Below, in pieces: positions 6,559 to 62,430 of a stretch of 64,000 nt of DNA. The notes below the pieces were generated by a model. It was not told the origin of the DNA. It ran no database searches and worked only from the letters and a program-made list of their open reading frames with translations. Position 1 is the stretch's first letter. Every line of letters begins with the position of its first letter. The DNA is from Alphaproteobacteria bacterium (GTDB lineage: Bacteria > Pseudomonadota > Alphaproteobacteria > GCA-2731375). The DNA lies in contig JASMDX010000056.1 of NCBI GenBank assembly GCA_030752605.1, positions 1,925 to 65,924 of the forward strand. Reading direction: 5' to 3'. Position numbers and translations under genes: made by a program.

Positions 6559-6864
6559 TTAAATCATCTGGCAAAATTCGACCAGTTCCCTTGAGCGCTT
6601 GATCTTGCCCTCCCAATGGCGGTCAAATTCCTTGATGAAGCCCTTCATAATGTCTGAATTTAGCAGGGCGTCGGCGGTCGCCATATCCGGAAACTCGTAA
6701 AACGCAACATGGACGTTGGCGTCCACGCTGCTCCAGCCGCGTTTGGCGCTGAGCGCGTTGAAGGCTTTTAGCGCGTCAGGCAGATGTTCGTTCTGATACC
6801 AAATATCGAATTGATCCTTGACCGAAGGCTCTACTTCGGCGCGTACGATTAAATAGGAGGTCAT
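6559..6864 (-). CDS. small hypothetical protein, dimeric alpha/beta-barrel-like (EthD/DUF4286-like)
   Basis: 101-aa ORF with FDIWYQNEHLPDALKAF, the WY..EH.P motif typical of that superfamily. Codon usage is coding-like. Confidence 0.5.
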   Translation of the reverse strand: MTSYLIVRAEVEPSVKDQFDIWYQNEHLPDALKAFNALSAKRGWSSVDANVHVAFYEFPDMATADALLNSDIMKGFIKEFDRHWEGKIKRSRELVEFCQMI

Positions 6865-7037
6865 GTTTCAGGTCCAACAATTGCGGAAAGATAGCGAGAT
6901 TAGCTTGCGCAAATTGGAATTCATAGTCTGCGGGCCCTGTTCTGCTGACACGTTTCAAATATTACAATTCAAGAGCTGGCGGCGAACTGGTAATACCGCG
7001 GTTAAATTCGTATCCGATCAAAAGGAGGAAACGGCCA

Positions 7038-8585
7038 ATGTCATGGCAAGCGGAACTTGATGAGCTGAAACGGCGCGAGGCCTTCGCCGAGAAACTTGGC
7101 GGCGAAATGCGGGTCAAGCGGCAGAAGGACGGTGGCCGCTATACCATTCGCGAACGGATCGAACTGCTTGCCGATGACGGCTCCTTCCACGAAATCGGCA
7201 AGATCGCCGGCATGGCCGCATACGACGGCAGGAATGATCTGGAGGATTTCACGCCTTCCAACTTCGTCTTTGGCCGGGCCCGCCTGAATGACCGGCAAGT
7301 GGTTATCGCCGGCGATGATTTCACCGTGCGCGGTGGCTCCGCCGATGCCACCATCAAGGAAAAGCATCTCAACGCGGAGGCCATGGCGAACGCGCTGCAA
7401 CTGCCCCTGGTCCGCCTGGTGGAAGGTTCGGGCGGTGGCGGTTCGGTCAAGACCATCGAGACCACGGGCCGAGCCAATGTGCCAGGCGTCGCGGGCTGGG
7501 ACATGGTGGTCGCGAATATGGGCACGGTGCCGCGGGTGGCGCTGGGGCTGGGCTCTGTCGCCGGTTTGGGCGCGGCGCATCTGGCGGCCTCGCACTATTC
7601 GGTCATGTTGAAGGAGAAATCAGCGATGTTCGTCGCTGGTCCACCGGTGGTGGAGCGGATCGGTCAGAAATTGACCAAGAATGAGCTGGGTGGCTACAAA
7701 ATCCAGCTGCGTGCCGGTGCCGTTGATCACGCGGTAAATACTGAAGAAGAAGCCTTTGAATGCGCCGGACGGTTCCTCTCTTACCTGCCGCAATCGGTCA
7801 ACGAGCTGCCGCCAAGGGTTGGCCTCACGGACGATCCCAACCGGCGGGTTGACTGGCTGATCGATGCCATTCCCCGGGATATCCGCAAAATTTACAAAAT
7901 GCGCCCCATCATCAAAGCCTTGGTCGATGAAGGCTCGTTCTTTGAAATGGGCAAGGAGTACGGTAAGTCAGTGATCACCGGGCTGGCCCGTCTGGATGGC
8001 TGGCCGGTCGCCTTCATGGCCTCGGACCCCATGTCTTATGGCGGCTGCTGGACGGCGGATACCTGCCGCAAGGTGGAGAAATTTGTCGATCTGGCAGAAA
8101 CCTTCCATCTGCCGATCGTGAATTTGTCCGATTGTCCCGGCTTTCAGGTCGGCCTGCAGGCGGAACAAAGCGGCGTTATCAAGGAGGGCGTTCGCGCCAT
8201 GAGCGCGATCTGGCAGACCACGGTGCCCTGGTGCACGATGATTATCCGTAATGTCTTTGGCGTCGCGGGGGCGGCGCATACGGTGGGCGGACGCTATACG
8301 ACCCGCTATGCCTGGCCGTCGGGCCGCTGGGGCTCGCTGCCTTTGGAAGGCGGGATTGAGGCCGCCTACAGCGCTGATATCGCCGCCGCCGCAGACCCGG
8401 ACGCGGAGTTGGAGATTATCACCGAGCGGCTGGAGAAATTGCGCTCGCCCTTCCGTTCAGCCGAAACCTTCTGGATCGAGGAAATTATCGACCCCCGCGA
8501 GACCCGAGAGCTGTTGTGCGATTTCGCCAATACGGCGGCGCCCCTGCGGACAACCGGAGTCTCATCGCACGCCATGCGCCCCTGA
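7038..8585 (+). CDS. acyl-CoA carboxylase carboxyltransferase (beta) subunit
   Basis: 515 aa with the carboxyl_trans domain layout: VVIAGDDFTVRGGSADA, GGARLQE-like LVEGSGGG, and DCPGFQVGLQAEQSGVIKEG in the second half. Confidence 0.85.
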   Translation: MSWQAELDELKRREAFAEKLGGEMRVKRQKDGGRYTIRERIELLADDGSFHEIGKIAGMAAYDGRNDLEDFTPSNFVFGRARLNDRQVVIAGDDFTVRGGSADATIKEKHLNAEAMANALQLPLVRLVEGSGGGGSVKTIETTGRANVPGVAGWDMVVANMGTVPRVALGLGSVAGLGAAHLAASHYSVMLKEKSAMFVAGPPVVERIGQKLTKNELGGYKIQLRAGAVDHAVNTEEEAFECAGRFLSYLPQSVNELPPRVGLTDDPNRRVDWLIDAIPRDIRKIYKMRPIIKALVDEGSFFEMGKEYGKSVITGLARLDGWPVAFMASDPMSYGGCWTADTCRKVEKFVDLAETFHLPIVNLSDCPGFQVGLQAEQSGVIKEGVRAMSAIWQTTVPWCTMIIRNVFGVAGAAHTVGGRYTTRYAWPSGRWGSLPLEGGIEAAYSADIAAAADPDAELEIITERLEKLRSPFRSAETFWIEEIIDPRETRELLCDFANTAAPLRTTGVSSHAMRP

Positions 8586-8865
8586 TACCAGGGAGCGCAT
8601 AGAAAATTCCGCTATTTTTGGCGGGTTTCAATTATCGAAGATGCCAGTTGAACTGCGCCAGGCTAATGATTATGTAAAATAATCTGACCTATGATAGTTG
8701 GAAATCAACACATGGCGCAAAACCACGAGCAATAATTCGTGCTGGTCATCGTCTCGATCCTTGGGGCCGCTGTTTTGCTGATTAGTCTGCTGGGCGTTTG
8801 GAACTTGTTTTAACGCCCTTCGGCGGCAAACGGCATGCAATCAGCCGACGGCGATAGGGCGCGTT

Positions 8866-9738
8866 CTATCGCGTTGGAACCGGCTTATCGCCTTGATAAT
8901 CGTAGAATCCACGCTCGGTCTTGCGCCCCAGCCAGCCGGCCTCGACGTATTTCACCAATAGCGGACAGGGCCGGTACTTGGTATCGGCCAGGCCTTCGTA
9001 GAGCACCTGCATGATCGCTAGGCAGGTATCCAGACCGATGAAATCAGCCAGTTGCAAGGGTCCCATGCGGTGGTTGGCGCCCAGGCGCATGGCGCTGTCG
9101 ATACCTTCAACCGTGCCCACGCCTTCGTACAGGGTGTAGACTGCCTCGTTGATCATGGGCACTAGGATGCGGTTGACGATGAAGGCGGGAAAATCCTCGG
9201 CATTGGTGGCAACCTTGCCGATCTTGAGCACGATCTCGCGCATCGCTTCAAACGTTGGAGCGTCCGTGGCGATGCCGCGGATCAGCTCCACCAGCTCCAT
9301 CATCGGCACCGGGTTCATGAAATGCATGCCCATGAACTTTTCCGGCCGGCCCGAGACTGCGGCCAAGCGCGTGATGGAGATGGATGAGGTGTTGGTGGCG
9401 ATCAGGCCTTCCGGCTTCAGGATTGGTCCCAGATCAGTCAGGATTTGCCTTTTGACCTCTTCATCTTCTGAGGCCGCCTCGATCACCAGATCGGCATTGG
9501 CCAGCTCGGGCAAGCCGGCGACGGTTTTGATCCGGGACAAGGAATCGGCCATTTCGACCTCTTCCAGTTTACCCCGGCCAACCTGACGGCTCATATTGCC
9601 CTCGATTACCTTCATCGCCTTTTGCATTTGGGCGTTGGAGGTATCGGTCAGCATGACGTTGTAGCCGCCGACGGCCAAGACATGGGCAATACCGCTGCCC
9701 ATCTGTCCCGCGCCGATAATGCCAATATTCTGGATCAT
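8866..9738 (-). CDS. hbd: 3-hydroxybutyryl-CoA / 3-hydroxyacyl-CoA dehydrogenase
   Basis: IGIIGAGQMGSGIAHV Rossmann motif, NTSSISIT, HFMNPVPMMELVE and GRKTERGFYDY. Confidence 0.9.
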   Translation of the reverse strand: MIQNIGIIGAGQMGSGIAHVLAVGGYNVMLTDTSNAQMQKAMKVIEGNMSRQVGRGKLEEVEMADSLSRIKTVAGLPELANADLVIEAASEDEEVKRQILTDLGPILKPEGLIATNTSSISITRLAAVSGRPEKFMGMHFMNPVPMMELVELIRGIATDAPTFEAMREIVLKIGKVATNAEDFPAFIVNRILVPMINEAVYTLYEGVGTVEGIDSAMRLGANHRMGPLQLADFIGLDTCLAIMQVLYEGLADTKYRPCPLLVKYVEAGWLGRKTERGFYDYQGDKPVPTR

Positions 9739-22207: not shown

Positions 22208-22295
22208 ATTGGACTAGCCGGTTGCCATGGCGGCGGGTAACGCCTATTTAGGCGGCCCGAATATTGACCGGTAATACCGACTGGGACGAGTCGCC

Positions 22296-22796
22296 ATGAC
22301 AGAGACGAAATCAAACCCCGCGGCCATGCGGTTCGCGGCCCGGCGAAGCATTGAACAGGTCGAGGAAGGCTTCGACCTGGCGCCGAAATTCGATGCCGAC
22401 GGGCTTTTGCCCGTGGTCACCTCGGACGCGGCCAGCGGTGAGATGTTGATGCATGGCTATATGAATGGCGAGGCCCTGCGTCTGACCATCGAAACCGGAG
22501 AGGCGCATTACTACAGCCGCAGCCGACAGGTGATCTGGCACAAGGGCGCGACCTCGGGCCTGGTGCAAAAGGTCGTGGAAATGCGCATCGATGACGATCA
22601 GGATTCGGTCTGGCTTCGTGTTGACGTGGCTGGTGGCGCCTCATGCCACGTTGGTTACCGCTCCTGCTTTTACCGCTCGGTTCCCCTCGGCCCCTCGCAG
22701 AGCGGCGCCGTGCCGCGCCTACAGTTCGAGGAAACCGAGAAGGTTTTCGACCCCAAGGCGGTCTATGGCGACGCCCCCAACCCAACGAAGCTGTAA
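22296..22796 (+). CDS. hisI: phosphoribosyl-AMP cyclohydrolase
   Basis: [63 protein letters not shown]. Confidence 0.9.
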
Positions 22797-23071
22797 CCAC
22801 ACCGAAGCCCGCATTTGGGGTTGCCAAGCCTCCAGCGCGTCGCGTTTCATCTGCCGCCGTTCGGCCCTCGGTCTGCGCCAGTCATGACCAAAGGCAACGG
22901 ATTCCCGGCTGCCATAGGCGGGATTGGCCAGCATGAACCATTTTTAGCCCTACATATCGGTATGTTTTACGCACTGGGCCTGGCGCACCGCCATGTTGCC
23001 ATTCCCGGCGATCACCTTATGGTGTTGGCTCCCGCGCATCTCTAACCCAGGATACAAAAAGGAACGATCGT

Positions 23072-24298
23072 ATGAGTGAGGACGCCATGATCTTATCGGG
23101 CATCAAGGTGTTGGATGCCGCCAGCTTCATCGCCGGGCCAGTGGCGACCACGATCATGGCCGATTTTGGCGCCGACGTGATCAAGGTGGAGCCGCCCTTG
23201 GGCGATGGCTACCGGCCACTGCATACGGTGGCGGGCATGCCACAGGCGGAGGAACCCTATCACTGGCTGGTGGACAACCGCACCAAACGCGGCCTAGCGC
23301 TGGATCTGAGCGTGGATGCCGGGCGCGAGGTGATATATAGGCTGGTGGCGGAGGCGGATGTATTCGTGACCAATTTCATGCCCGGTGTGCGAGAAAAGCT
23401 CGGCTTGCTCTACGAGGATCTGGCGCCTCTGAACGAGCGTTTGATCTACGGCTCCATGTCCGCCTATGGCGAGACCGGGCCTGAAGCAGGCCAGACCGGC
23501 TTTGATACCACCGCTTATTGGGCCCGCAGCGGCCTGATGGACCTGGTGCGCCCGGATCCGGACGGTGATCCGGCCCGCTCCATGGCCGGCATGGGGGATC
23601 ATCCGACCGGCGTCGCCCTGTTTTCGGCTATCATGATGGCATTGTACCGGCGCGAGCGTACAGGCCGGGGTGGCCTGGCGCATACCTCGTTGTTGGCGAA
23701 CGGCTATTGGTCCAACGCCTTCATGGCCCAGGCTGCCCTGTGCGGTGCGGCGGTGCCCAACCGTCCCGTGCGCAAGGCTTCGGCGAATGCGCTTTCAAAC
23801 CATTACCGGACTAAGGACGGCCGCTGGTTCATTCTGACCGCTGCCAACGAAGTTAAGGAGTGGACCCGTTTCCCAACCGCCATCGGGCGACCGGAACTGG
23901 CCGAGGATCCGCGCTTTTTGACGCAAGCCGACCGACAGAAAAATGTCGGCGCCCTGATCGCCTTACTGGACGAAGTCTTTGCCCAACAGGACATGGATTA
24001 TTGGCACGAGACCTTCGCGGCCTGTCGGATCACAGTGGGCGTGGTCGCCAAGACGGAAGATATTCTGCACAGCGAACAGGCCCTTGCCGCCGGTATTACG
24101 GTACCGGGCAGCGGTGCTGGTTTTGGCGCCGAGCTGACCATCGATAGTCCCCTCTGGGTCGAGGGGGCTGCCAAGCGGGCCCCCCGCCCGGCCCCGGAAT
24201 TGGGACAGCATAATTTGGAAATTCTGGCCGAGGCCGGATATGACGAAGCCGGAATCGCCGAGTTGAAGGTTCGTGGTGCTTTCGGCGCTGAAAGCTAG
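23072..24298 (+). CDS. family III CoA-transferase (CaiB/BaiF type)
   Basis: LSGIKVLDAASFIAGPVATTIMADFGADVIKVEPP, ADVFVTNFMPG, plus a conserved GMGDH region. Confidence 0.9.
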   Translation: MSEDAMILSGIKVLDAASFIAGPVATTIMADFGADVIKVEPPLGDGYRPLHTVAGMPQAEEPYHWLVDNRTKRGLALDLSVDAGREVIYRLVAEADVFVTNFMPGVREKLGLLYEDLAPLNERLIYGSMSAYGETGPEAGQTGFDTTAYWARSGLMDLVRPDPDGDPARSMAGMGDHPTGVALFSAIMMALYRRERTGRGGLAHTSLLANGYWSNAFMAQAALCGAAVPNRPVRKASANALSNHYRTKDGRWFILTAANEVKEWTRFPTAIGRPELAEDPRFLTQADRQKNVGALIALLDEVFAQQDMDYWHETFAACRITVGVVAKTEDILHSEQALAAGITVPGSGAGFGAELTIDSPLWVEGAAKRAPRPAPELGQHNLEILAEAGYDEAGIAELKVRGAFGAES

Positions 24299-24312
24299 AC
24301 GAGGAGAATAAA

Positions 24313-25581
24313 GTGGTACGATTAGCAGATCTGGACGAGCCGGAACGCTCGCACTTGGCCAATATACCTTGCGCCAGTTTCGATGCCGAGCCCTGGGTTA
24401 CGGGCCCGCCCCTGACGGAACGGCGGATCGCGATGATCTCCACCGCCGCGCTGCAGCATCGGGACGACACACCGTTCCTGATCGGTACCGGTGATTACCG
24501 CTACATTGCCGACGATACGCCAGCCAGTGACCTGGTCATGGCGCATATCTCGACCAATTTCGACCGCTCCGGCTTCGAGCAGGACCTGAACGTGGTGCTG
24601 CCCCTGGACCGCATGCATGAATTGGCCGAGGCTGGCGAAATCGGCTCCGTCGCGCGGTTCCATTACGCCTTCATGGGCTCCACCGACCCGGTGCAGATGG
24701 AAGCTGCAGCCCGCGCCATGGCTGGCCATCTTAAGGCGGATGGGGTCGATAGCTGTATCTTGCTGCCTGTTTGACCCTTGTGTACGCGCGCCGTGGGCGG
24801 GCTGGCACATTATCTGGAAGACGAAGGCCTGGCGACGACGCAGATCAGCCTGATCCGGCCGCAGACGGAGAACACGCGGCCGCCGCGCGCTCTGTGGGTG
24901 CCGTTTGAATTGGGCCGCCCATTAGGCGCGCCCAATGACGCGGCTTTTCAAGCCAAGGTGCTGCGGACCGCCTTGGCCCTGCTGGAACGGACGGACGGTC
25001 CGGTCATCCTGGACGACTTTCCCGAAGATGCGCCGGTTTCTGGGGCGGCGGAAAATGATGAGGGCTGGTTCTGTCCCATTAATCTGCCGCCACCGCCCGC
25101 TGATCTGGAAGCGGGTGGCGGTTACAAGGTGGCCATACAGGCGGAAATCGGCGGTCTGACCACGTGGTATGATATTGCCCTGCGCGAGCGTGGGCGGACG
25201 ACCATGGGTCTCAGCGGCATGAAGATCGACGAGATCACGGATTTTGTCTGCGCCTTTCTGGATAGCCAGATACCGGAAAACCCAAACGAAGGCCAAAGCC
25301 TGGGGCAAAGCCTGAAATTCGCCGTCGAGGATCTGAAGGCTTTTTACCGCGAGGCCGCTGGTGCGCAACCGGGGCAAAATACTGGCAAGGAAATGAATGA
25401 CTGGTTCTATGGCAGCACGGCGGCGGGTAAGGCGATGTATGCGCTGTGGCCCATCGCCGATAACCTGGCGAAACAGTCGGGCGATGAATTCATGAAAATA
25501 TTCGCCAATCTGCTGTTGATCCCCGCGTCGCAGAAATTCCGGGCAAAGGCGGCAAATACGAAGGGGGAGGCCGGAACATGA
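24313..25581 (+). CDS. GrdB/PrdB-family (glycine/sarcosine/betaine/D-proline reductase B-like) selenoprotein; TGA at 24772..24774 read as Sec
   Basis: ORFs 24313..24774 and 24778..25581 share one frame and are separated only by TGA-CCC. Joined, they read ...AGHLKADGVDSCILLPV-U-PLCTRAVGGLAHYLEDEGLATTQISL. This parallels the GrdB selenocysteine region (GVD..IL...U..CTR......E..GI). The N-terminal half has the GRDB-family pattern (RIAMISTAAL, DYRYI, H....FD, FPLDR-like LPLDRMHELAEAGEIGS). Total length is 421 codons, close to GrdB size. Confidence 0.8.
24781..24809 (+). promoter_or_regulatory. candidate SECIS-like hairpin downstream of the Sec UGA (hand-folded, imperfect)
   Basis: ugu/aca outer pairs flank a CGCGCC...GGCGGGC stem (24785..24804) with one G-G mismatch and one bulged U. 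The G/U-containing apical loop (cGUGg) lies about 18-22 nt after the UGA. Confidence 0.3.
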
Positions 25582-26528
25582 CGGCCAAGCTGGCAATCCT
25601 GGATGACTATCAGCGGGTAGCGCTGGAGCTGGCGGATTGGTCTGGCCTGCCAGGAGATGTGGAAATCACTGTTTTCGATGACAATCTGGCTGACCTGGGC
25701 GCAGTGGCCGAACGCTTGGCGCCATTTGAAATCCTGGCCGCCATGCGGGAGAGGACGCCCTTTCCCCGCGTCTTGTTCGAAAAACTGCCGAACCTGAAAC
25801 TGCTGGTCACCACGGGCATGCGCAACGGTGCCATCGATATGGCGGCGGCGGCGGAGCACGGCGTCATCGTCTGCGGTACCTTGGGCAGCACCGAATCCAC
25901 GGTGGAAATGATCTGGACCTTGATCCAGGCCGTGGTCCGCCGCCTGCCGCAAGAGGACAGGGCGACCCGCGAAGGTAAATGGCAGACCAGCGTGGGCTGG
26001 ACCTTGGCCGGGCGCACCCTGGGCCTGGTTGGTTTGGGCCGGCTTGGCGTGCGGACCGCCGCCATCGCGAACTTTTTCAATAAGCGGGTTATTGCCTGGA
26101 GCGAAAACCTGACGCTCGAGCGGGCCGCTGAATGTGGCGCCGAACTTGTTTCGAAGTCGGATTTGTTCAAGCAATCCGATATTGTCTCGATCCACCTAAT
26201 ACTGTCGAAACGCAGCCGCGGCCTGATCGGCGCCGATGACCTTGCCTCGATGAAATCGGAACCTTAACTGGTCAACACCGCGCGCGGCCCCATCGTTGAC
26301 GAGGCCGCGCTGCTGGAGGTCTTGCGTCAAGGCCGTATCGCCGGCGCGGCCCTGGATGTCTATGATCAGGAGCCTCTGCCCAAGGATCATCCGTTGCTGG
26401 TTTTGGATAACACCATTATCTCGCCGCATATGGCGTATGTAACCGAGGAAAACCTGACGCAATTTCATCGCGAAACCGTGGAAGATATCGTCGCCTGGCT
26501 AAGTGGCCAGCCGATCAGAGTGCTTTAA
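25578..26528 (+). pseudogene. D-isomer-specific 2-hydroxyacid dehydrogenase with an in-frame TAA
   Basis: ORFs 25578..26267 and 26322..26528 are in one frame: ...GLIGADDLASMKSEP[TAA 26265..26267]LVNTARGPIVDEAALLEVLRQGRIAGAALDVYDQEPLPKDHPLL...SPHMAYVT. The stop falls inside the conserved MK....LVNT.RG block. The Rossmann motif GLVGLGRLG is upstream. The ATG overlaps the selenoprotein stop (ATGA). Confidence 0.8.
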
Positions 26529-40577: not shown

Positions 40578-40682
40578 ATGCGGAAATTTTTTCTTTGACG
40601 GTGCCTAGCCTGCCACAAAATTGCTATATTTCCGGTCTAGGTTTGCCTGATGATTTGGCAAGAAGTTAGAGGATGAGGCTTC

Positions 40683-41858
40683 ATGAGTTTTTTCGTATAC
40701 GGATCGCGGCTGCTTCCGCTGGCCGCCACGGTTTTCGCCCTGGCTCTGCTGCTGACCGGCGGCAACGCCGGGGTGGCGGCGAAATCCTTGACCGAAACCC
40801 CGGCCAAACAGGCGATCCTGATCGATCATGCCACCGGGACCGTGCTGTTTTCCAAGAATTCCGAACAAGCTATGCCGCCGTCATCCATGTCCAAGCTAAT
40901 GACCCTGTATATGCTGTTCGACCGGTTGGCCGCCGGCGGTCTGAAGATGGACGATACCTTTCCGGTCAGCAAGAAAGCCTGGCGCATGGGCGGTTCGAAA
41001 ATGTTCGTCCGCGTCGATACCGAAGTCAAGATCGGCGACCTGATCCGCGGTATCGTCATCCAGTCGGGCAACGATGCCTGCATCGTGGTGGCGGAAGGCA
41101 TTGGCGGCGATGAAGCATCCTTTGCCAGCCTGATGAATGAGACGGCCCGGGAATTGGGCATGCTGGACAGCTATTTCGTTAACGCCTCCGGCTGGCCGCA
41201 TCCCGATCACGTCATGACCGCCAAGGACTTGTCTATTCTGGTCCGGGCCCTGATCGACAAGTTCCCGCAATATTACCCGATCTTTTCCGAACGCAGTTTT
41301 ACCTTTTCCAAGATTCGCCAGGGCAACCGCAACCCCCTGCTTTACAAGAACGTCGGCGCCGATGGCCTGAAAACCGGCTATACCGCGGCCGCTGGCTATG
41401 GCCTGGCCGCCTCGGCCCAGCGCAGCGGGCGGCGACTGGATCTGGTGGTGAACGGCCTGAACAGCGTCAATCAACGCAGCAGGGAATCACAACGGCTGTT
41501 GTCCTGGGGGTTTCGGGAATTCGGCAACTACGCCCTGTTCAAGGCTGGCGAGCAGGTGGCGGACGCCTCGGTCTGGCTGGGCAGCATGGGTACGGTGCCC
41601 CTGTTGATCGAGGATCCCCTGACCATCATCATTCCGCGCAAGGCACGCCGGGACATGAAGGTCAGCGTTAATTTTCAGGGACCCTTGCCAGCACCCATCG
41701 CCAAGGGGCAGATGGTGGCGACCTTGCGCATCGAGGCACCGAACATGACACCGATCGTGCGGCCCCTGATCGCCGGCGCCAATATTGCCCGCAAAGGTGT
41801 TTTTGGTCGTCTTGGCGCGGCGCTGGAACATCTGGTGTTCGGCGGCGTTTCCAATTGA
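40683..41858 (+). CDS. serine-type D-Ala-D-Ala carboxypeptidase (PBP5/6 class, peptidase S11)
   Basis: Signal peptide, then SMSKLMT (SxxK), SGND and KTGYT motifs. Confidence 0.9.
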   Translation: MSFFVYGSRLLPLAATVFALALLLTGGNAGVAAKSLTETPAKQAILIDHATGTVLFSKNSEQAMPPSSMSKLMTLYMLFDRLAAGGLKMDDTFPVSKKAWRMGGSKMFVRVDTEVKIGDLIRGIVIQSGNDACIVVAEGIGGDEASFASLMNETARELGMLDSYFVNASGWPHPDHVMTAKDLSILVRALIDKFPQYYPIFSERSFTFSKIRQGNRNPLLYKNVGADGLKTGYTAAAGYGLAASAQRSGRRLDLVVNGLNSVNQRSRESQRLLSWGFREFGNYALFKAGEQVADASVWLGSMGTVPLLIEDPLTIIIPRKARRDMKVSVNFQGPLPAPIAKGQMVATLRIEAPNMTPIVRPLIAGANIARKGVFGRLGAALEHLVFGGVSN

Positions 41859-41867
41859 TGTACTGCC

Positions 41868-42953
41868 ATGGCGGATGATCCCGAAGCTCTCTCCGGCCCT
41901 ATCGCTGCCGCCATATTGATCGGTCACGGCGGCGCGGAACAGGCCTTTCTTGATACCGCCGCCGCCCAACGCCTGCCCCACGCCTGGCTGTTATCTGGAC
42001 CCAGGGGCATTGGCAAAATGACCCTGGCTTACCGCATGGCCCGGTTTCAGCTTTCCCAGGGCGCTGATGGCGGCGGTCTGTTCGGCACTCCCGATAGCTT
42101 GGAGATGGCGCCCGAGCATGATGTTTTTCGCCGCGTCCTGGCGGGCGGCCATGGCGATTTGCAACTGATCGAGCGGGCGCTGAACGATAAGACCAAGAAA
42201 ATGCGTGGTGATATCGTGGTCGACCAGATCCGCGCCCTTGGCCGGTTTTTCGCCATGACCTCGGCCGATGGCGGCTGGCGCGTCGCCATTATTGATGGCG
42301 CCGAGGAAATGAACCCGAACGCCGCCAACGCCTTGTTGAAGCTGTTGGAAGAGCCGCCCAAAAAGAGCCTGCTGCTGCTGGTTAGCCATGCCGCCGGCCG
42401 TCTGCTGCCGACCATCCGTTCGCGCTGCCGTCACCTTGCCCTGCGGCCATTGGCGGAGGCGGAGGCAATGGCAGTGATGGCCCAACAGGCACCGGAGATG
42501 GACGAGGGCGAACGTTTGGGCCTGGTCCGCCTCGCCGAGGGCAGCCCGGGCCGCGCCCTGGCCATGGGCGCGGAAGGCGGTCTGCAGACCTATGATGAAT
42601 TACTCAAACTGGTGCGCAATCTGCCGGAGCTGGATTTCGCCGCTGTGCATGCCTTGGGCGATCGTTTGAACCGGGCCAACAACGAAGCCGCCTATCGGGT
42701 CTGGATCGATCTGCTGCGGCTATGGCTGTCGCGCCTGGCCCGTGGCGGCGCTGGGCTGGAGGGGATGCGCGACGCGGTGGCGGGCGAGGCCTCCTTGGCC
42801 ACCCGACTGACCGGTGCCGTCGGCCTTGATCGCTGGGTCGAGCTATGGGAAAAGGTCGGCGGTTTGGCCATGCGGGCCGAGCGGGTCAATCTGGATCGAA
42901 AACAGGTCGTCTTGAGCGCCTTCATGGATTTGCAAAGCACCGCGCGGCAGTAG
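41868..42953 (+). CDS. holB: DNA polymerase III subunit delta'
   Basis: HAWLLSGPRGIGKMTLAYRMA, a clamp-loader AAA+ Walker-A-like motif, and TIRSRC (SRC motif). Confidence 0.85.
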   Translation: MADDPEALSGPIAAAILIGHGGAEQAFLDTAAAQRLPHAWLLSGPRGIGKMTLAYRMARFQLSQGADGGGLFGTPDSLEMAPEHDVFRRVLAGGHGDLQLIERALNDKTKKMRGDIVVDQIRALGRFFAMTSADGGWRVAIIDGAEEMNPNAANALLKLLEEPPKKSLLLLVSHAAGRLLPTIRSRCRHLALRPLAEAEAMAVMAQQAPEMDEGERLGLVRLAEGSPGRALAMGAEGGLQTYDELLKLVRNLPELDFAAVHALGDRLNRANNEAAYRVWIDLLRLWLSRLARGGAGLEGMRDAVAGEASLATRLTGAVGLDRWVELWEKVGGLAMRAERVNLDRKQVVLSAFMDLQSTARQ

Positions 42954-53708: not shown

Positions 53709-54320
53709 TCAGGCCGTGGCGCTGGGCCGGGCCTGCATGCGTCCGTGCCAGGCGGTGATATTCGCCAGCGATTGATCAATGGGCTGATCCACGCCGGCAA
53801 AGAAATCGATGAAGCCGAACAACAGAATATCGGCCAGGGTTAACCGTTCGCCGACGATGAAGCTCTTACCCGCCATCTGTTGATCCAGCCACTGCAATTT
53901 GTCCTGGGCTGCCGCCTTTAAGTCGTCCGCTGCCTGGGGGATGCAGCGCATGCGGCCCTGAAACATCTTCAGGCCCGTGGAATAGCGGAAGCCATTGGCC
54001 ATGGGCTCGCAGATATTGAGGTCAATACGCCGGGTCCACATGCGGGTTTCTGCTTTTTCCTCCGCCGTGGCGCCAATCAGCGCCGGTTCGGGATGGCGAT
54101 CCTCAAGATATTCGCAGATCACCGTGATTTCCGCCAGAACGCCGCCGTCATCAAGCTCCAGCGCTGGGCATTGCCCGGACGGATTGAGCTGAAGATAGTC
54201 CGATTGGCGGTTGACGCCGGCCATGATGTCAACCTCTTCCATGGGCAGATCAATGCCCTTTTCCGCCATGAACATGCGGACAACGCGCGGATTTGGACCG
54301 ATGGAATTGTATAATTTCAT
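53709..54320 (-). CDS. glutathione S-transferase
   Basis: MKLYNSIGPNPRVVRMFMAEKGI, NPSGQCPALELDDG, LAEITVICEYLED. Confidence 0.9.
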   Translation of the reverse strand: MKLYNSIGPNPRVVRMFMAEKGIDLPMEEVDIMAGVNRQSDYLQLNPSGQCPALELDDGGVLAEITVICEYLEDRHPEPALIGATAEEKAETRMWTRRIDLNICEPMANGFRYSTGLKMFQGRMRCIPQAADDLKAAAQDKLQWLDQQMAGKSFIVGERLTLADILLFGFIDFFAGVDQPIDQSLANITAWHGRMQARPSATA

Positions 54321-60162: not shown

Positions 60163-62430
60163 TTGAACGATACCGACACTGACGCCGCATCCCGTCCAGA
60201 CCTGCTTGAAAAGGTCACGGGCCGCGCTGTCTATGCCAGCGATATTTCCGTCCCCGGCATGGCACAGGGCCGCATATTACGCAGTACGGTGCCCCATGCC
60301 CGCATCGTCCGTCTGGATTGTGCCGCCGCCGCTGCCCTTGAGGGCGTGATCACGGTACTGACCGGTGCTGATCTTGCCAGCCTAGCGCAGGACCATTGGG
60401 GCCTGTTTCTCAAGGACCGCCCGGTCATAGCTGTTGATAAAGTTCGCTATGTAGGCGAGCCCGTTGCGCTGGTGGTCGCGGAGACGGCCGCGATCGCGGA
60501 GGCCGCCCTCGACCTGATTGATGTGGACTACGAAGACCTGCCGTTTGTTGACAATGCCGTGTCGGCCATCGCGCAAGGGGCCCCACTATTGCATGAAAGC
60601 CACGAAACCATCGCGGATTTCTATTTCAAGGGCGAGGCCAAACCTGTTGCCGGCAGCAATGTTTTTCAGAAGTTTCAAGTCAGCACAGGTGACGTGGATG
60701 CGGCCGAGGCCGCAGCGGCAGGTGTGTTCGAGCACAGCTACAGCTTTCCCGGCGTATCTCATTTTGCGCTCGAACCCCATTGCGTGGTCGCCGCGTTCGA
60801 AGAGGCGGATTTGACTGTATGGTCCGGTGCCCAATCACCCACGGCGGTGCAAAAGGTGCTGTCGCGGGTTTTTGGGCTGGCGCTGGCCAATATTCGTGTC
60901 ATCGTGCCGCATGTTGGCGGCGGCTTCGGCGGCAAGGCGTCGGTCAAGGTCGAACCGTTGGTCGCCGCCGCCGCCTACAAGGCCCGCCGCCCGGTCCGGG
61001 TCGCGCTAAGCCTGGAAGAATCCATGCTGACCTGCCGCCGCCTGGGCGCCGAGATCACCTTGCGCACCGCCGTTGATGAAAATGGCAAGGTTCTCGCTAA
61101 ACGCGCCGCCATTCTGCTCGATGGTGGTGCCTATGCGGATACCGGGCCGGCGGTCGCGGTAAAAGCGGCGCACCGTGTCATCGGTCCTTATGGGATTGAA
61201 AATCTGGAAATCGAGGCGAAGGCCGTCTACACAAATACGGTGCCGGGTGCCGCCTTCCGCTCCATTGGCGGCCCTCAGGCGGTGTGGGCGACGGAATCCC
61301 AGATGGATGAAATTGCCGAGTCCCTGACCATTGACCCGGTCGAATTACGCCGGCGCAATCTGTTGCCGCGCGGCGGGAAAATTCTCGATACCCTACGTCC
61401 CCTCGACGTGGATATGGGTGAAATGCTGAGCCAAGCGGACCGGGCAATGACAGCGCTAGGCAGTGGTCCCGCCGCTGGCCTGGCGATGGCGGCGACTGAT
61501 CCTGGCATCATGCCTATCGGCGGCGCATTGGTCCGTGTCCTGGCGGATGGTTCAATTGTCGTGATGTCCAACAGTGTGGAGATCGGCCAGGGGGTCCGTG
61601 CCGTCTTGCGTGAGGTAGCGGCCAAGACTTTGAACCAGGATCCAGCCGCAATTCGGGTTGCCAATCCAGACACGGCGGCGGCACCCTTTGATTGGGGCAC
61701 CGGGGCCAGCCGCTCCACCGTGATCATGGGCCTTGCCGTGGAAGACGCGGCGCGCGATGCCTCTGATCAGATACTGGCTCTGGCCGCTTCCGTGTTCGAT
61801 GGTGCGCCGAACGACATTCGGTTGGTGCCGAGAGGTGTTGCCCATGGCGATGATGTGCTTTCGTTTCAGAATCTCTATCACAAGGCGTTTGGTGTCGATT
61901 CCGGCGAGGTCGTAGGCCGTGCCATGGTGACCCCAGTACGTGGCGGCAGCGATTTCACGAAATCTCCGCTGTTTTGGGAAACCGCCGTGGGTGCGTGCGA
62001 TGTCGAGGTGGATGAAGAAACTGGCGAGGTCGCGGTCAGCCGTTATGTGGGCGTCGCCGATATTGGCAGGGCCATCAACCGGACCGGCGCCGAGGGCCAG
62101 GAAGAAGGCGCCTCGGTACAAGGCATGGGGCATGCGATGTTCGAACATCTGGATTATGTCGACGGCCAACCGGTCAATGCCACGCCTGTGGCCTACCGGG
62201 TGCCGGCGGCGGGTGATATTCCCGCACATGCCCATACCGTTTTGATCGAGAACGGCGACGGCCCCGGCCCCATGGGCGCCAAAGGCATGGGCGAAGGCGG
62301 CATTCTGCCGGTTGCGCCGGCCATCGCAAACGCGTTGGCCCGCCGCCACGGCATCCGCATTCGTGATCTACCCCTGACCCCGGAACGTATATGGCGCGCC
62401 TTGCGAAATCGGGGCGATGATGCTCCCTAA
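60163..62430 (+). CDS. xanthine dehydrogenase/aldehyde oxidase-family molybdopterin-binding large subunit
   Basis: LLEKVTGRAVYASDI, RYVGEPVALVVAE, GGGFGGK, AFRSIGGPQ, and GEGG near the C-terminus. The start is taken as TTG 60163, just after the NIPSNAP stop, because there is no in-frame ATG downstream of it. Confidence 0.85.
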   Translation: MNDTDTDAASRPDLLEKVTGRAVYASDISVPGMAQGRILRSTVPHARIVRLDCAAAAALEGVITVLTGADLASLAQDHWGLFLKDRPVIAVDKVRYVGEPVALVVAETAAIAEAALDLIDVDYEDLPFVDNAVSAIAQGAPLLHESHETIADFYFKGEAKPVAGSNVFQKFQVSTGDVDAAEAAAAGVFEHSYSFPGVSHFALEPHCVVAAFEEADLTVWSGAQSPTAVQKVLSRVFGLALANIRVIVPHVGGGFGGKASVKVEPLVAAAAYKARRPVRVALSLEESMLTCRRLGAEITLRTAVDENGKVLAKRAAILLDGGAYADTGPAVAVKAAHRVIGPYGIENLEIEAKAVYTNTVPGAAFRSIGGPQAVWATESQMDEIAESLTIDPVELRRRNLLPRGGKILDTLRPLDVDMGEMLSQADRAMTALGSGPAAGLAMAATDPGIMPIGGALVRVLADGSIVVMSNSVEIGQGVRAVLREVAAKTLNQDPAAIRVANPDTAAAPFDWGTGASRSTVIMGLAVEDAARDASDQILALAASVFDGAPNDIRLVPRGVAHGDDVLSFQNLYHKAFGVDSGEVVGRAMVTPVRGGSDFTKSPLFWETAVGACDVEVDEETGEVAVSRYVGVADIGRAINRTGAEGQEEGASVQGMGHAMFEHLDYVDGQPVNATPVAYRVPAAGDIPAHAHTVLIENGDGPGPMGAKGMGEGGILPVAPAIANALARRHGIRIRDLPLTPERIWRALRNRGDDAP

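Follow-up and report, generated by a model that had tools for sequence, protein, structure and literature searches.

An in-frame UGA very probably encoding selenocysteine in a PrdB-related, two-domain protein of an alphaproteobacterial contig

The subject of this analysis is a gene at positions 24313..25581 (+) of a 64-kb stretch of an alphaproteobacterial contig (JASMDX010000056.1, assembly GCA_030752605.1), the whole of which is referred to here as the window. We conclude with high confidence that the TGA at 24772-24774, which closes the first of two listed open reading frames (ORFs), encodes selenocysteine (Sec), and that the gene specifies one selenoprotein of 422 residues. This conclusion rests on a single frame running across the TGA, the conservation of the TGA in relatives (59/59 loci), the presence of Cys at its place in other homologs (13/13), the alignment of the codon with PrdB's Sec column, selection before and after it with low ratios of non-synonymous to synonymous substitution rates (dN/dS) downstream, a conserved hairpin just 3′ of the UGA, and the linkage of sel genes to the gene in relatives. 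The core claim of the initial annotation, which had been made from the sequence and had joined the two ORFs into one GrdB/PrdB-superfamily selenoprotein, is borne out by these findings.

The two ORFs, 24313..24774 (GTG start, 153 aa followed by the TGA) and 24778..25581 (TTG start, 267 aa), lie in one frame, and nothing but the TGA and one CCC codon (24775-24777) separates them. Read through, the junction is ...KADGVDSCILLPV-*-PLCTRAVGGLAHYLEDEGLATTQIS, giving a product that runs ...DGVDSCILLPV-U-PLCTRAVGGLAHYLEDEG..., the residues around the junction being also written ...ADGVDSCILLPV-U-PLCTR. The joined frame is free of any other stop or frameshift up to its final stop, TGA 25579-25581. Direct reading of the sequence thus agreed with the layout first described (two ORFs in the same frame, TGA and CCC between them, and the junction peptide), except that the count of 421 codons was one short, 153 + U + P + 267 making 422 sense codons with Sec at position 154. 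The GTG at 24313 agrees with the start of homologs, which open MVRLAD..., and a Shine-Dalgarno-like GAGGAG, read off the sequence, lies 6 nt 5′ of it (24301..24306, +).

Sixty related loci were gathered from a one-genome-per-species collection by peptide patterns that left out the Sec site. The aligned codon was TGA in every one of the 59 informative loci, inside PV-U-P-x-C-T-R-A-V and at 39-90% identity, and it was TGA in 44/44 once sequences more than 90% identical had been dropped, a constancy well beyond what chance would produce. The TGA-bearing loci span at least seven major lineages, among them Alphaproteobacteria, Gammaproteobacteria, Burkholderiales, Binatia, Desulfarculaceae, Verrucomicrobia and Chloroflexota. 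An ordinary sense codon at this place in relatives, which the initial annotation had named, together with the lack of a conserved hairpin, among the outcomes that would speak against Sec, was found in none of them. Frames were intact on both sides of the TGA in 52 of the 59; the other loci reached contig ends (L012, L057, L059), carried frameshifts (L040, L055), lost similarity after 82 residues (L054) or held an insertion of ~3 kb (L058). The disruptions in the last four lay 3′ of the Sec codon (L058, 6600-9573; L040, ~6951-6960; L055, ~6608-6624; L054, after 6705), and these members could be pseudogenes, mobile-element insertions or assembly errors; with regard to the frameshifted L040 and L055, some of the metagenome-assembled genomes (MAGs) may stem from error-prone long-read assemblies.

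Among close hits in the protein database, most were ~255-aa 'hypothetical proteins' covering the post-TGA part alone, and a minority were proteins of 400-470 aa with PF07355. All 13 of these full-length homologs have Cys at the Sec column, reading PVCPxC[TS]R, the Sec/Cys exchange familiar from selenoprotein families. An independent metagenome contig (L261; MPLY02036551.1, GCA_002896255.2) proved 99.5% identical to window positions 22236-26188, with the same TGA and the same hairpin. Of its 17 mismatches to the window, 7 are non-synonymous, and these 7 cluster in selenoprotein residues 256-305, where the linker passes into the helical domain described below; a 1-nt indel leaves this contig with a frameshifted dehydrogenase gene.

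Comparison of the window gene with its clade relatives (dS 0.4-1.8) yielded dN/dS values of 0.08-0.18 before the TGA, 0.04-0.10 over the 74 codons after U, and 0.07-0.16 in the C-terminal extension. Because dN/dS is low there within the window's clade, the sequence 3′ of the TGA is translated, and the earlier statement that conserved coding sequence continues for 267 codons beyond the TGA holds, with downstream values of 0.04-0.16. These data bear directly on a rival view, in which the TGA arose recently by nonsense mutation, or by sequencing error, in a decaying genome and translation of the downstream ORF has ceased. Such an explanation can point to the adjoining dehydrogenase gene, which is interrupted by a TAA peculiar to the window (Tyr in nine relatives), and to the lack of Sec machinery within the 64 kb. 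However, that TAA is confined to the window, whereas every locus compared has the ancestral TGA; purifying selection acts on the 268 codons that follow it just as on those that precede it, and neither a second stop nor a frameshift interrupts them; the position of the TGA is precisely that of the PrdB Sec column; and the same TGA recurs in the independent 99.5%-identical assembly. The initial annotation had judged one more broken gene unlikely; conservation effectively refutes that alternative, which we regard as vanishingly improbable.

The placement of the TGA relative to true PrdB was determined with two reference prdB genes taken from a plasmid collection, those of Peptoclostridium acidaminophilum DSM 3953 and Terrisporobacter petrolearius, codon 151 being an in-frame TGA in both. 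When the three proteins were aligned with MAFFT, U154 shared its column with the RefSeq-annotated Sec151 of both proteins. The flanks read KKDGVDAAVFTAG-U-GTCHRS...EESGIPT in PrdB versus KADGVDSCILLPV-U-PLCTRA...EDEGLAT in the window, with DGVD...-U-xxC-xR...EExGI as the common pattern, the U-x-x-C motif being U-P-L-C in the window and U-G-T-C in true PrdB. The Cys of this motif, the putative resolving Cys157 (codon TGT, 24781..24783, +), is Cys in 44/44 non-redundant members as well as in true PrdB. The TGA had been assigned at first to the GrdB-type Sec position with a U-x-x-C motif. That assignment stands for PrdB, through the alignment to U151, and for the Cys homologs, whereas GrdB itself was placed by profile coordinates alone, the GrdB-type models putting U154 near position 345-350. 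We take the Sec of GrdB to lie near residue ~350, in agreement with the model coordinates, although this agreement is no test.

The junction could alternatively separate two polypeptides, with termination at the UGA and a restart at TTG 24778 yielding subunits of 153 and 267 aa; a start-capable TTG does lie 3 nt after the stop, and public gene callers annotate two ORFs. In relatives, however, the codon after the Pro encodes Leu, Phe, Met, Asn, Gln, Arg or Ala and in many cases could not initiate translation, and no Shine-Dalgarno sequence precedes 24778. The Cys-form homologs are, moreover, single chains across the junction, as is true PrdB with its Sec there, and an AF2 model of a Cys homolog (P0054) places both halves in one predicted alpha/beta domain. 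We give the two-subunit arrangement hardly any credence and treat the product as one chain.

Immediately 3′ of the UGA we found a conserved hairpin. The 48 nt from the UGA onward were aligned without gaps in 44 sequences, and RNAalifold independently located a hairpin at alignment columns 15-31, equivalent to window positions 24786..24802 (+). This 17-nt core, GCGCGCC-GUG-GGCGGGC, begins 11 nt after the UGA. In the minimum-energy fold it is extended to 24779..24809 (+) by a lower stem, UGUGU/GCACA (24779-24783 with 24805-24809), which is kept in close relatives only, the weak support for its outer pairs amounting to 26-60% of cells paired. A manually proposed, slightly longer structure had 74% of cells paired, versus 27-57% when the partners were slid; four of its pairs showed changes on both sides, and its covariation score was reached by 0 of 500 shuffles. 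Compensatory changes occurred at pairs 15-31, 16-30 and 18-28, including C-G to U-A replacements at 16-30 (L021, L030) and at 18-28 (L041). To tell constraint on the RNA from constraint on the protein, third-position entropy was measured where the encoded residue is conserved. Codons +4 to +7 (Thr, Arg, Ala, Val), which form the 5′ arm and loop of the hairpin, had entropies of 0.62, 0.17, 0.16 and 0.77 bits compared to a mean of 1.51 bits at 65 other four- or sixfold degenerate codons (Mann-Whitney p=5e-4), the lowest four-codon window in the gene. Several loci with sel genes alongside (e.g. L024-L026) share exactly the 17-nt core of the window hairpin. On this comparative evidence the hairpin is a probable selenocysteine insertion sequence (SECIS)-like element. 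The RNA folding that had been suggested as a check downstream of the TGA did recover a conserved hairpin 11 nt after the UGA, though with a fold energy not above that of shuffled sequences.

Genes for Sec synthesis and insertion accompany the family gene in many relatives, 22 of the 59 related loci having at least one sel component within 6 kb. A tRNA-Sec(UCA) was present within this distance in 18 loci, with no other tRNA in any flank, and SelD in 17 (TIGR00476, 289 bits versus a cut-off of 125). The SelD proteins comprised 13 full pyridine-nucleotide-disulfide-oxidoreductase::SelD fusions, two that were cut by contig ends and two stand-alone forms; the 13 fusions are all convergent with the family gene and lie immediately 3′ of it. 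SelA was nearby in 6 loci (590 bits) and SelB in 5 (373 bits), and all sel hits pass the NCBIfam equivalog cut-offs. The fusions, of ~740 aa, consist of a TIGR03169 domain and SelD, are encoded on the opposite strand from ~+830 to +3100 relative to the TGA, and are followed by tRNA-Sec (L024-L026, L029, L031, L032, L034, L036-L038, L044, L045, L056); in the gammaproteobacterial loci L047, L049 and L051-L053, selA and selB take the fusion's place. This arrangement resembles a compact island of Sec machinery and client gene. In MAG SRP308112_co1_145, which holds a more distant member, the family gene, SelD and tRNA-Sec are on three separate contigs.

Several observations weigh against Sec insertion as proposed here. 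The stability of the hairpin did not exceed that of shuffled sequence (z=-0.5 over 41 nt, -1.5 over the 17-nt core), and Rfam at a permissive threshold returned no match to a SECIS or any other family. Few sequences contribute to the covariation, and strong conservation of the peptide that the hairpin region encodes means that constraint on the RNA cannot be fully told apart from constraint on the protein; the invariant G-U of the apical loop is also fixed by an invariant Val codon. SelD, SelA and SelB (tblastn) and tRNA-Sec were not found within the 64-kb window, the tRNA content of which is limited to tRNA-Gln, nor was any sel gene present in the flanks of the 11 closest loci. MAGs of the closest clade, which are incomplete, were absent among the matches listed for a SelD scan and a 27-nt tRNA-Sec pattern, and absent from all 58 matches of a scan with a 38-nt tRNA-Sec pattern; what these scans did show was SelD or tRNA-Sec at other places in genomes that carry more distant family members. 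The adjoining dehydrogenase gene carries a genuine nonsense codon, so the genome or its assembly is not free of defects, and the enzymatic function is wholly inferred. A second selenoprotein gene, sought across the whole window as a proxy for Sec use with a crude screen of codon-position GC, yielded no candidate, two short-segment hits (33811 and 48450) being left unexamined; the one other TGA with long coding-like flanks (at least 100 codons on each side) is an ordinary junction of adjacent genes.

Some of these points would be expected if the family were truly one of selenoproteins but this genome had lost its Sec machinery or were losing the operon, leaving the copy silent or truncated: the last gene of the operon is broken by the TAA, sel genes are missing from the window and from the closest-clade flanks, and none of the clade appears among the scan matches listed. 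The selenoprotein gene is nevertheless intact, with strong purifying selection against clade relatives at dS ~0.5, and the core of the hairpin is unchanged. Sel genes missing from incomplete MAGs, among the matches listed, are weak evidence. We therefore consider loss of the machinery improbable and retain the interpretation of a functional Sec codon.

The protein is built of two parts. The PrdB-like alpha/beta domain comprises the N-terminal 153 codons up to the active site (24313..24771, +), aligned to true PrdB residues 1-150, and a second part (residues 155-241; 24775..25035, +) that contains the invariant motif PPRALWVPFxLGRPLG and corresponds in the alignment to the last third of true PrdB, whose C-terminus falls here. 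The rest is a family-specific C-terminal extension, predicted to be all-helical (residues 242-422; 25036..25578, +). A near-invariant Cys-Pro in the linker between the two (Cys254, nt 25072-25074; motif W-[AF]-C-P-[IV]) is kept in Sec and Cys forms alike, and this Cys could be a third redox-active residue. The AF2 model of P0054 (pLDDT 87, pTM 0.89) consists of one predicted alpha/beta domain across the Sec site, followed by a predicted all-helical domain with helices at 267-404. Searches of the PDB returned nothing significant by fold for either domain (best hit for the extension, E=0.026, TM<0.3) and only noise by sequence, and the extension of ~180 residues had no match in Pfam or NCBIfam. 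Against 1.8 billion representative proteins, the extension alone retrieved 536 clusters, 292 of them at E<=1e-10. Among its best 150 hits, 149 were 291 aa or shorter, with the domain mostly starting near residue 71, and one was a full-length Cys form; the short hits are the signature of gene calls that begin just after the TGA. Judged from these sequence searches, the extension is confined to this architecture, and Sec forms dominate.

Pfam GRDB (PF07355) matched residues 80-150 at model positions 273-344 of 347, with 33.7 bits against a gathering cut-off of 22, and the best NCBIfam match was PrdB (TIGR04483; E=6e-31, residues 33-227). This last match, together with the common Sec column and U-x-x-C motif, and the filing of such sequences as 'proline reductase PrdB' in marine surveys (PMC1088965, PMC2398784), would favor an ordinary PrdB (D-proline reductase) or GrdB/F/H (glycine, sarcosine or betaine) engaged in Stickland-type amino-acid reduction. 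The PrdB score, however, was 107.7 bits against an equivalog cut-off of 300, and the GrdB-type models also stayed below theirs (TIGR01917, 36.2 versus 602; TIGR01918, 44.9 versus 65.45; NF040794, 44.6 versus 800; NF040795, 54.7 versus 775). PrdA gave no tblastn match at E<=1 in the window or in the 60 family loci (positive control, E=6e-130), a result that leaves room for a distant genomic prdA. The neighbors encode CoA-transferase, 2-hydroxyacid dehydrogenase, glutathione S-transferase (GST), molybdenum (Mo)-hydroxylase and sel products rather than prdACDEF or grdACDE. The protein has 422 residues versus ~240 and a C-terminal domain foreign to PrdB, and its motif, U-P-L-C-T-R-A, lacks a third Cys, as it does across the family, in contrast to the UxxCxxC of GrdB (PMC13188914). 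An ordinary reductase of either kind is accordingly very improbable. Because the protein falls below the equivalog cut-offs, has no PrdA nearby, carries UxxC rather than UxxCxxC and bears an extra C-terminal domain, its sequence characterizes it as a member of a paralogous subfamily and not as an ortholog of PrdB or GrdB. The initial annotation had noted that the joined length fits the family; this is a coincidence, for the Sec position (154) resembles that of the 240-aa PrdB and the additional residues make up the C-terminal domain.

Cultured Roseomonas and Haematobacter carry plasmid-borne homologs; these paralogs are shorter and more distant, stand in unrelated contexts and are uninformative on function. 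One of them, a 302-aa Cys-type paralog annotated 'selenoprotein B family protein' (L305, plasmid p546-2 of the cultured alphaproteobacterium Roseomonas haemaphysalidis, 6863-9248), stands tail to tail with a gene for the protein adenylyltransferase SelO.

In the window, the selenoprotein gene is the middle one of three. It follows a gene for a family III CoA-transferase (23072..24298, +; CoA_transf_3, E=4e-100; stop TAG 24296-24298), which is upstream in 11/11 of the closest loci and in L261, and it precedes a gene for a D-2-hydroxyacid dehydrogenase (25578..26528, +; 2-Hacid_dh), the ATG of which overlaps the selenoprotein stop (ATGA), an arrangement indicative of translational coupling. The order CoA-transferase, selenoprotein, D-2-hydroxyacid dehydrogenase, with short gaps or overlaps, is common to the window, the 11 closest loci and L261; further upstream in the window lies an enoyl-CoA hydratase gene. 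This context points to organic-acid or acyl-CoA metabolism. The pairing of a CoA-transferase with a 2-hydroxyacid dehydrogenase recalls the reductive 2-hydroxyacid pathways of amino-acid fermenters, which we mention as a lead and not as a result. Other clades have a GST-like gene directly upstream together with Mo-hydroxylase large subunits, or selA-selB downstream, and no neighbor is universal.

The TAA at 26265-26267 of the dehydrogenase gene is Tyr in nine relatives, which read through to ~317 aa; the stop is specific to the window and may reflect a sequencing error or a pseudogene. The initial annotation had spoken of many genuine nonsense mutations in the window; near the gene, this is the only one confirmed, the other same-frame ORF pairs inspected proving to be adjacent genes or non-coding shadow frames. 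Two long pairs of this kind, each split by a single stop, were identified from their translations: 40677-42953 (+) corresponds to a PBP5-type D-Ala-D-Ala carboxypeptidase followed by DNA polymerase III delta′ (HolB), with TGA 41856 between them, and 34857-32158 (-) to Dxs followed by a TlyA-like methyltransferase, with TAG 32937.

By consensus matching, the sole sigma-70-like site ahead of the operon on the + strand lies at 22996-23023, ~50 nt 5′ of the CoA-transferase start, and downstream of the selenoprotein gene nothing resembling an intrinsic terminator was matched. The window lacks a small gene (cluster 11) that the clade otherwise keeps downstream. Elsewhere in the window, 60193-62403 (+) encodes a Mo-hydroxylase large subunit of the CoxL/xanthine-dehydrogenase family, 31% identical (E=8e-59) to a neighbor of the family gene in other clades, and 54036-54308 (-) a GST-like fragment, the GST and Mo-hydroxylase families being immediate neighbors of the selenoprotein gene elsewhere. 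From its translation, an ORF at 59700-58435 (-) resembles a radical-SAM protein of the anaerobic-sulfatase-maturase type with an SEC-C-like motif at its end.

Sec insertion in this organism, like the chemistry and the substrate of the enzyme, we infer from the features described above. The G+C-rich hairpin at 24786-24802, with its invariant apical-loop G-U, would recruit the SelB-GTP-Sec-tRNA(Sec) complex to the ribosome, whereupon UGA 24772-24774 would be read as Sec and not as a stop. Sec154 and Cys157 would then form the same U-x-x-C center as in PrdB: the selenolate would attack the substrate, Cys157 would resolve the adduct, and the resulting selenenyl-sulfide would be reduced again by a thiol or an NAD(P)H-dependent system. 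Given the added helical domain and the lack of a pyruvoyl PrdA/GrdE partner, the substrate is probably not D-proline, glycine or betaine. We tentatively propose, at a confidence somewhat short of even, that 'marine PrdB' proteins are not proline reductases but separate, stand-alone selenoenzymes that join a PrdB-like U-x-x-C domain to a helical domain peculiar to the family and lacking a structural match, which may replace PrdA/GrdE. Where it stands beside selD (often as the FAD-oxidoreductase::SelD fusion), tRNA-Sec, selA and selB, as in many Alpha- and Gammaproteobacteria, such an enzyme may be the main client of the Sec machinery or act in selenium handling, while in the window's clade it may serve a pathway with the CoA-transferase and the 2-hydroxyacid dehydrogenase.

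The locus should be annotated as one Sec-containing coding sequence and not as a GRDB-domain fragment and a 'hypothetical protein'. The same mis-splitting affects hundreds of database entries, as the 149 short proteins among the best 150 C-terminal-domain hits illustrate. According to published surveys the family is among the ocean's most abundant selenoproteins, and the 'proline reductase' label it carries is probably wrong, since there is no PrdA partner, the extra domain has no structural relative and the metabolic neighbors vary. That a proline-reductase role is unlikely for the marine 'PrdB' seems less appreciated than the family itself. Since in several lineages the gene is closely linked to selD, selA, selB and tRNA-Sec, the family is a strong candidate to explain why the costly Sec machinery is retained by many marine and other environmental Proteobacteria.

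Compared to known systems, the putative SECIS-like element is like that of E. coli fdhF in being a hairpin directly 3′ of the UGA, and differs from it in sequence and stem composition and in having no Rfam match. Its size and spacing (17 nt, 11 nt after the UGA, with a G-U in the apical loop) match those of the minimal fdhF SECIS.

With PrdB (TIGR04483; WP_148296006 of P. acidaminophilum, WP_083399465 of T. petrolearius) the window protein has in common an alpha/beta domain that is homologous over the whole length of PrdB at ~32% identity, the Sec column (U151 versus U154), the U-x-x-C motif and the flanking DGVD, C-x-R and EExGI. In contrast, PrdB has 238-242 aa and ends at about window residue 241, while the window protein goes on for an extra helical domain of 180 aa. 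In both T. petrolearius and P. acidaminophilum prdA lies directly 5′ of prdB, whereas none is found near the window gene or in the 60 related loci. The hosts differ as well, those of PrdB being Stickland-fermenting Clostridia and those of the window family Proteobacteria and other non-Stickland lineages, mostly marine or environmental MAGs.

GrdB, GrdF and GrdH (PF07355, TIGR01917/01918, NF040794/5) belong to the same Pfam family, residues 77-221 of the window protein matching positions 268-417 of models with ~431-435 positions. The extra residues of GrdB (~435 aa) are, however, ~270 at its N-terminus, and those of the window protein are C-terminal. GrdB has UxxCxxC (PMC13188914) where the window protein has U-P-L-C-T-R-A, and no grdA, grdE, grdC or grdD neighbors accompany the window gene.

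The closest resemblance by features is to the 'PrdB' of marine surveys. In the Sargasso Sea, 'proline reductase PrdB' (pfam07355, UxxC) was reported in 2005 as the third most abundant known selenoprotein family, with 42 genes in Sec form and one in Cys form (PMC1088965), and in the Global Ocean Sampling (GOS) data it was again among the most abundant, with 235 Sec forms and 110 Cys homologs (2008, PMC2398784). The window family matches these sequences, by features only, in pfam07355, the UxxC motif, abundant Sec and fewer Cys forms, and its occurrence in marine bacteria. Whereas the surveys treat the family as a proline reductase, the lack of PrdA and the extra domain argue here for a separate function. 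By these features the family is one already catalogued in marine surveys, and the window gene is one more member of it, with the typical mis-annotation.

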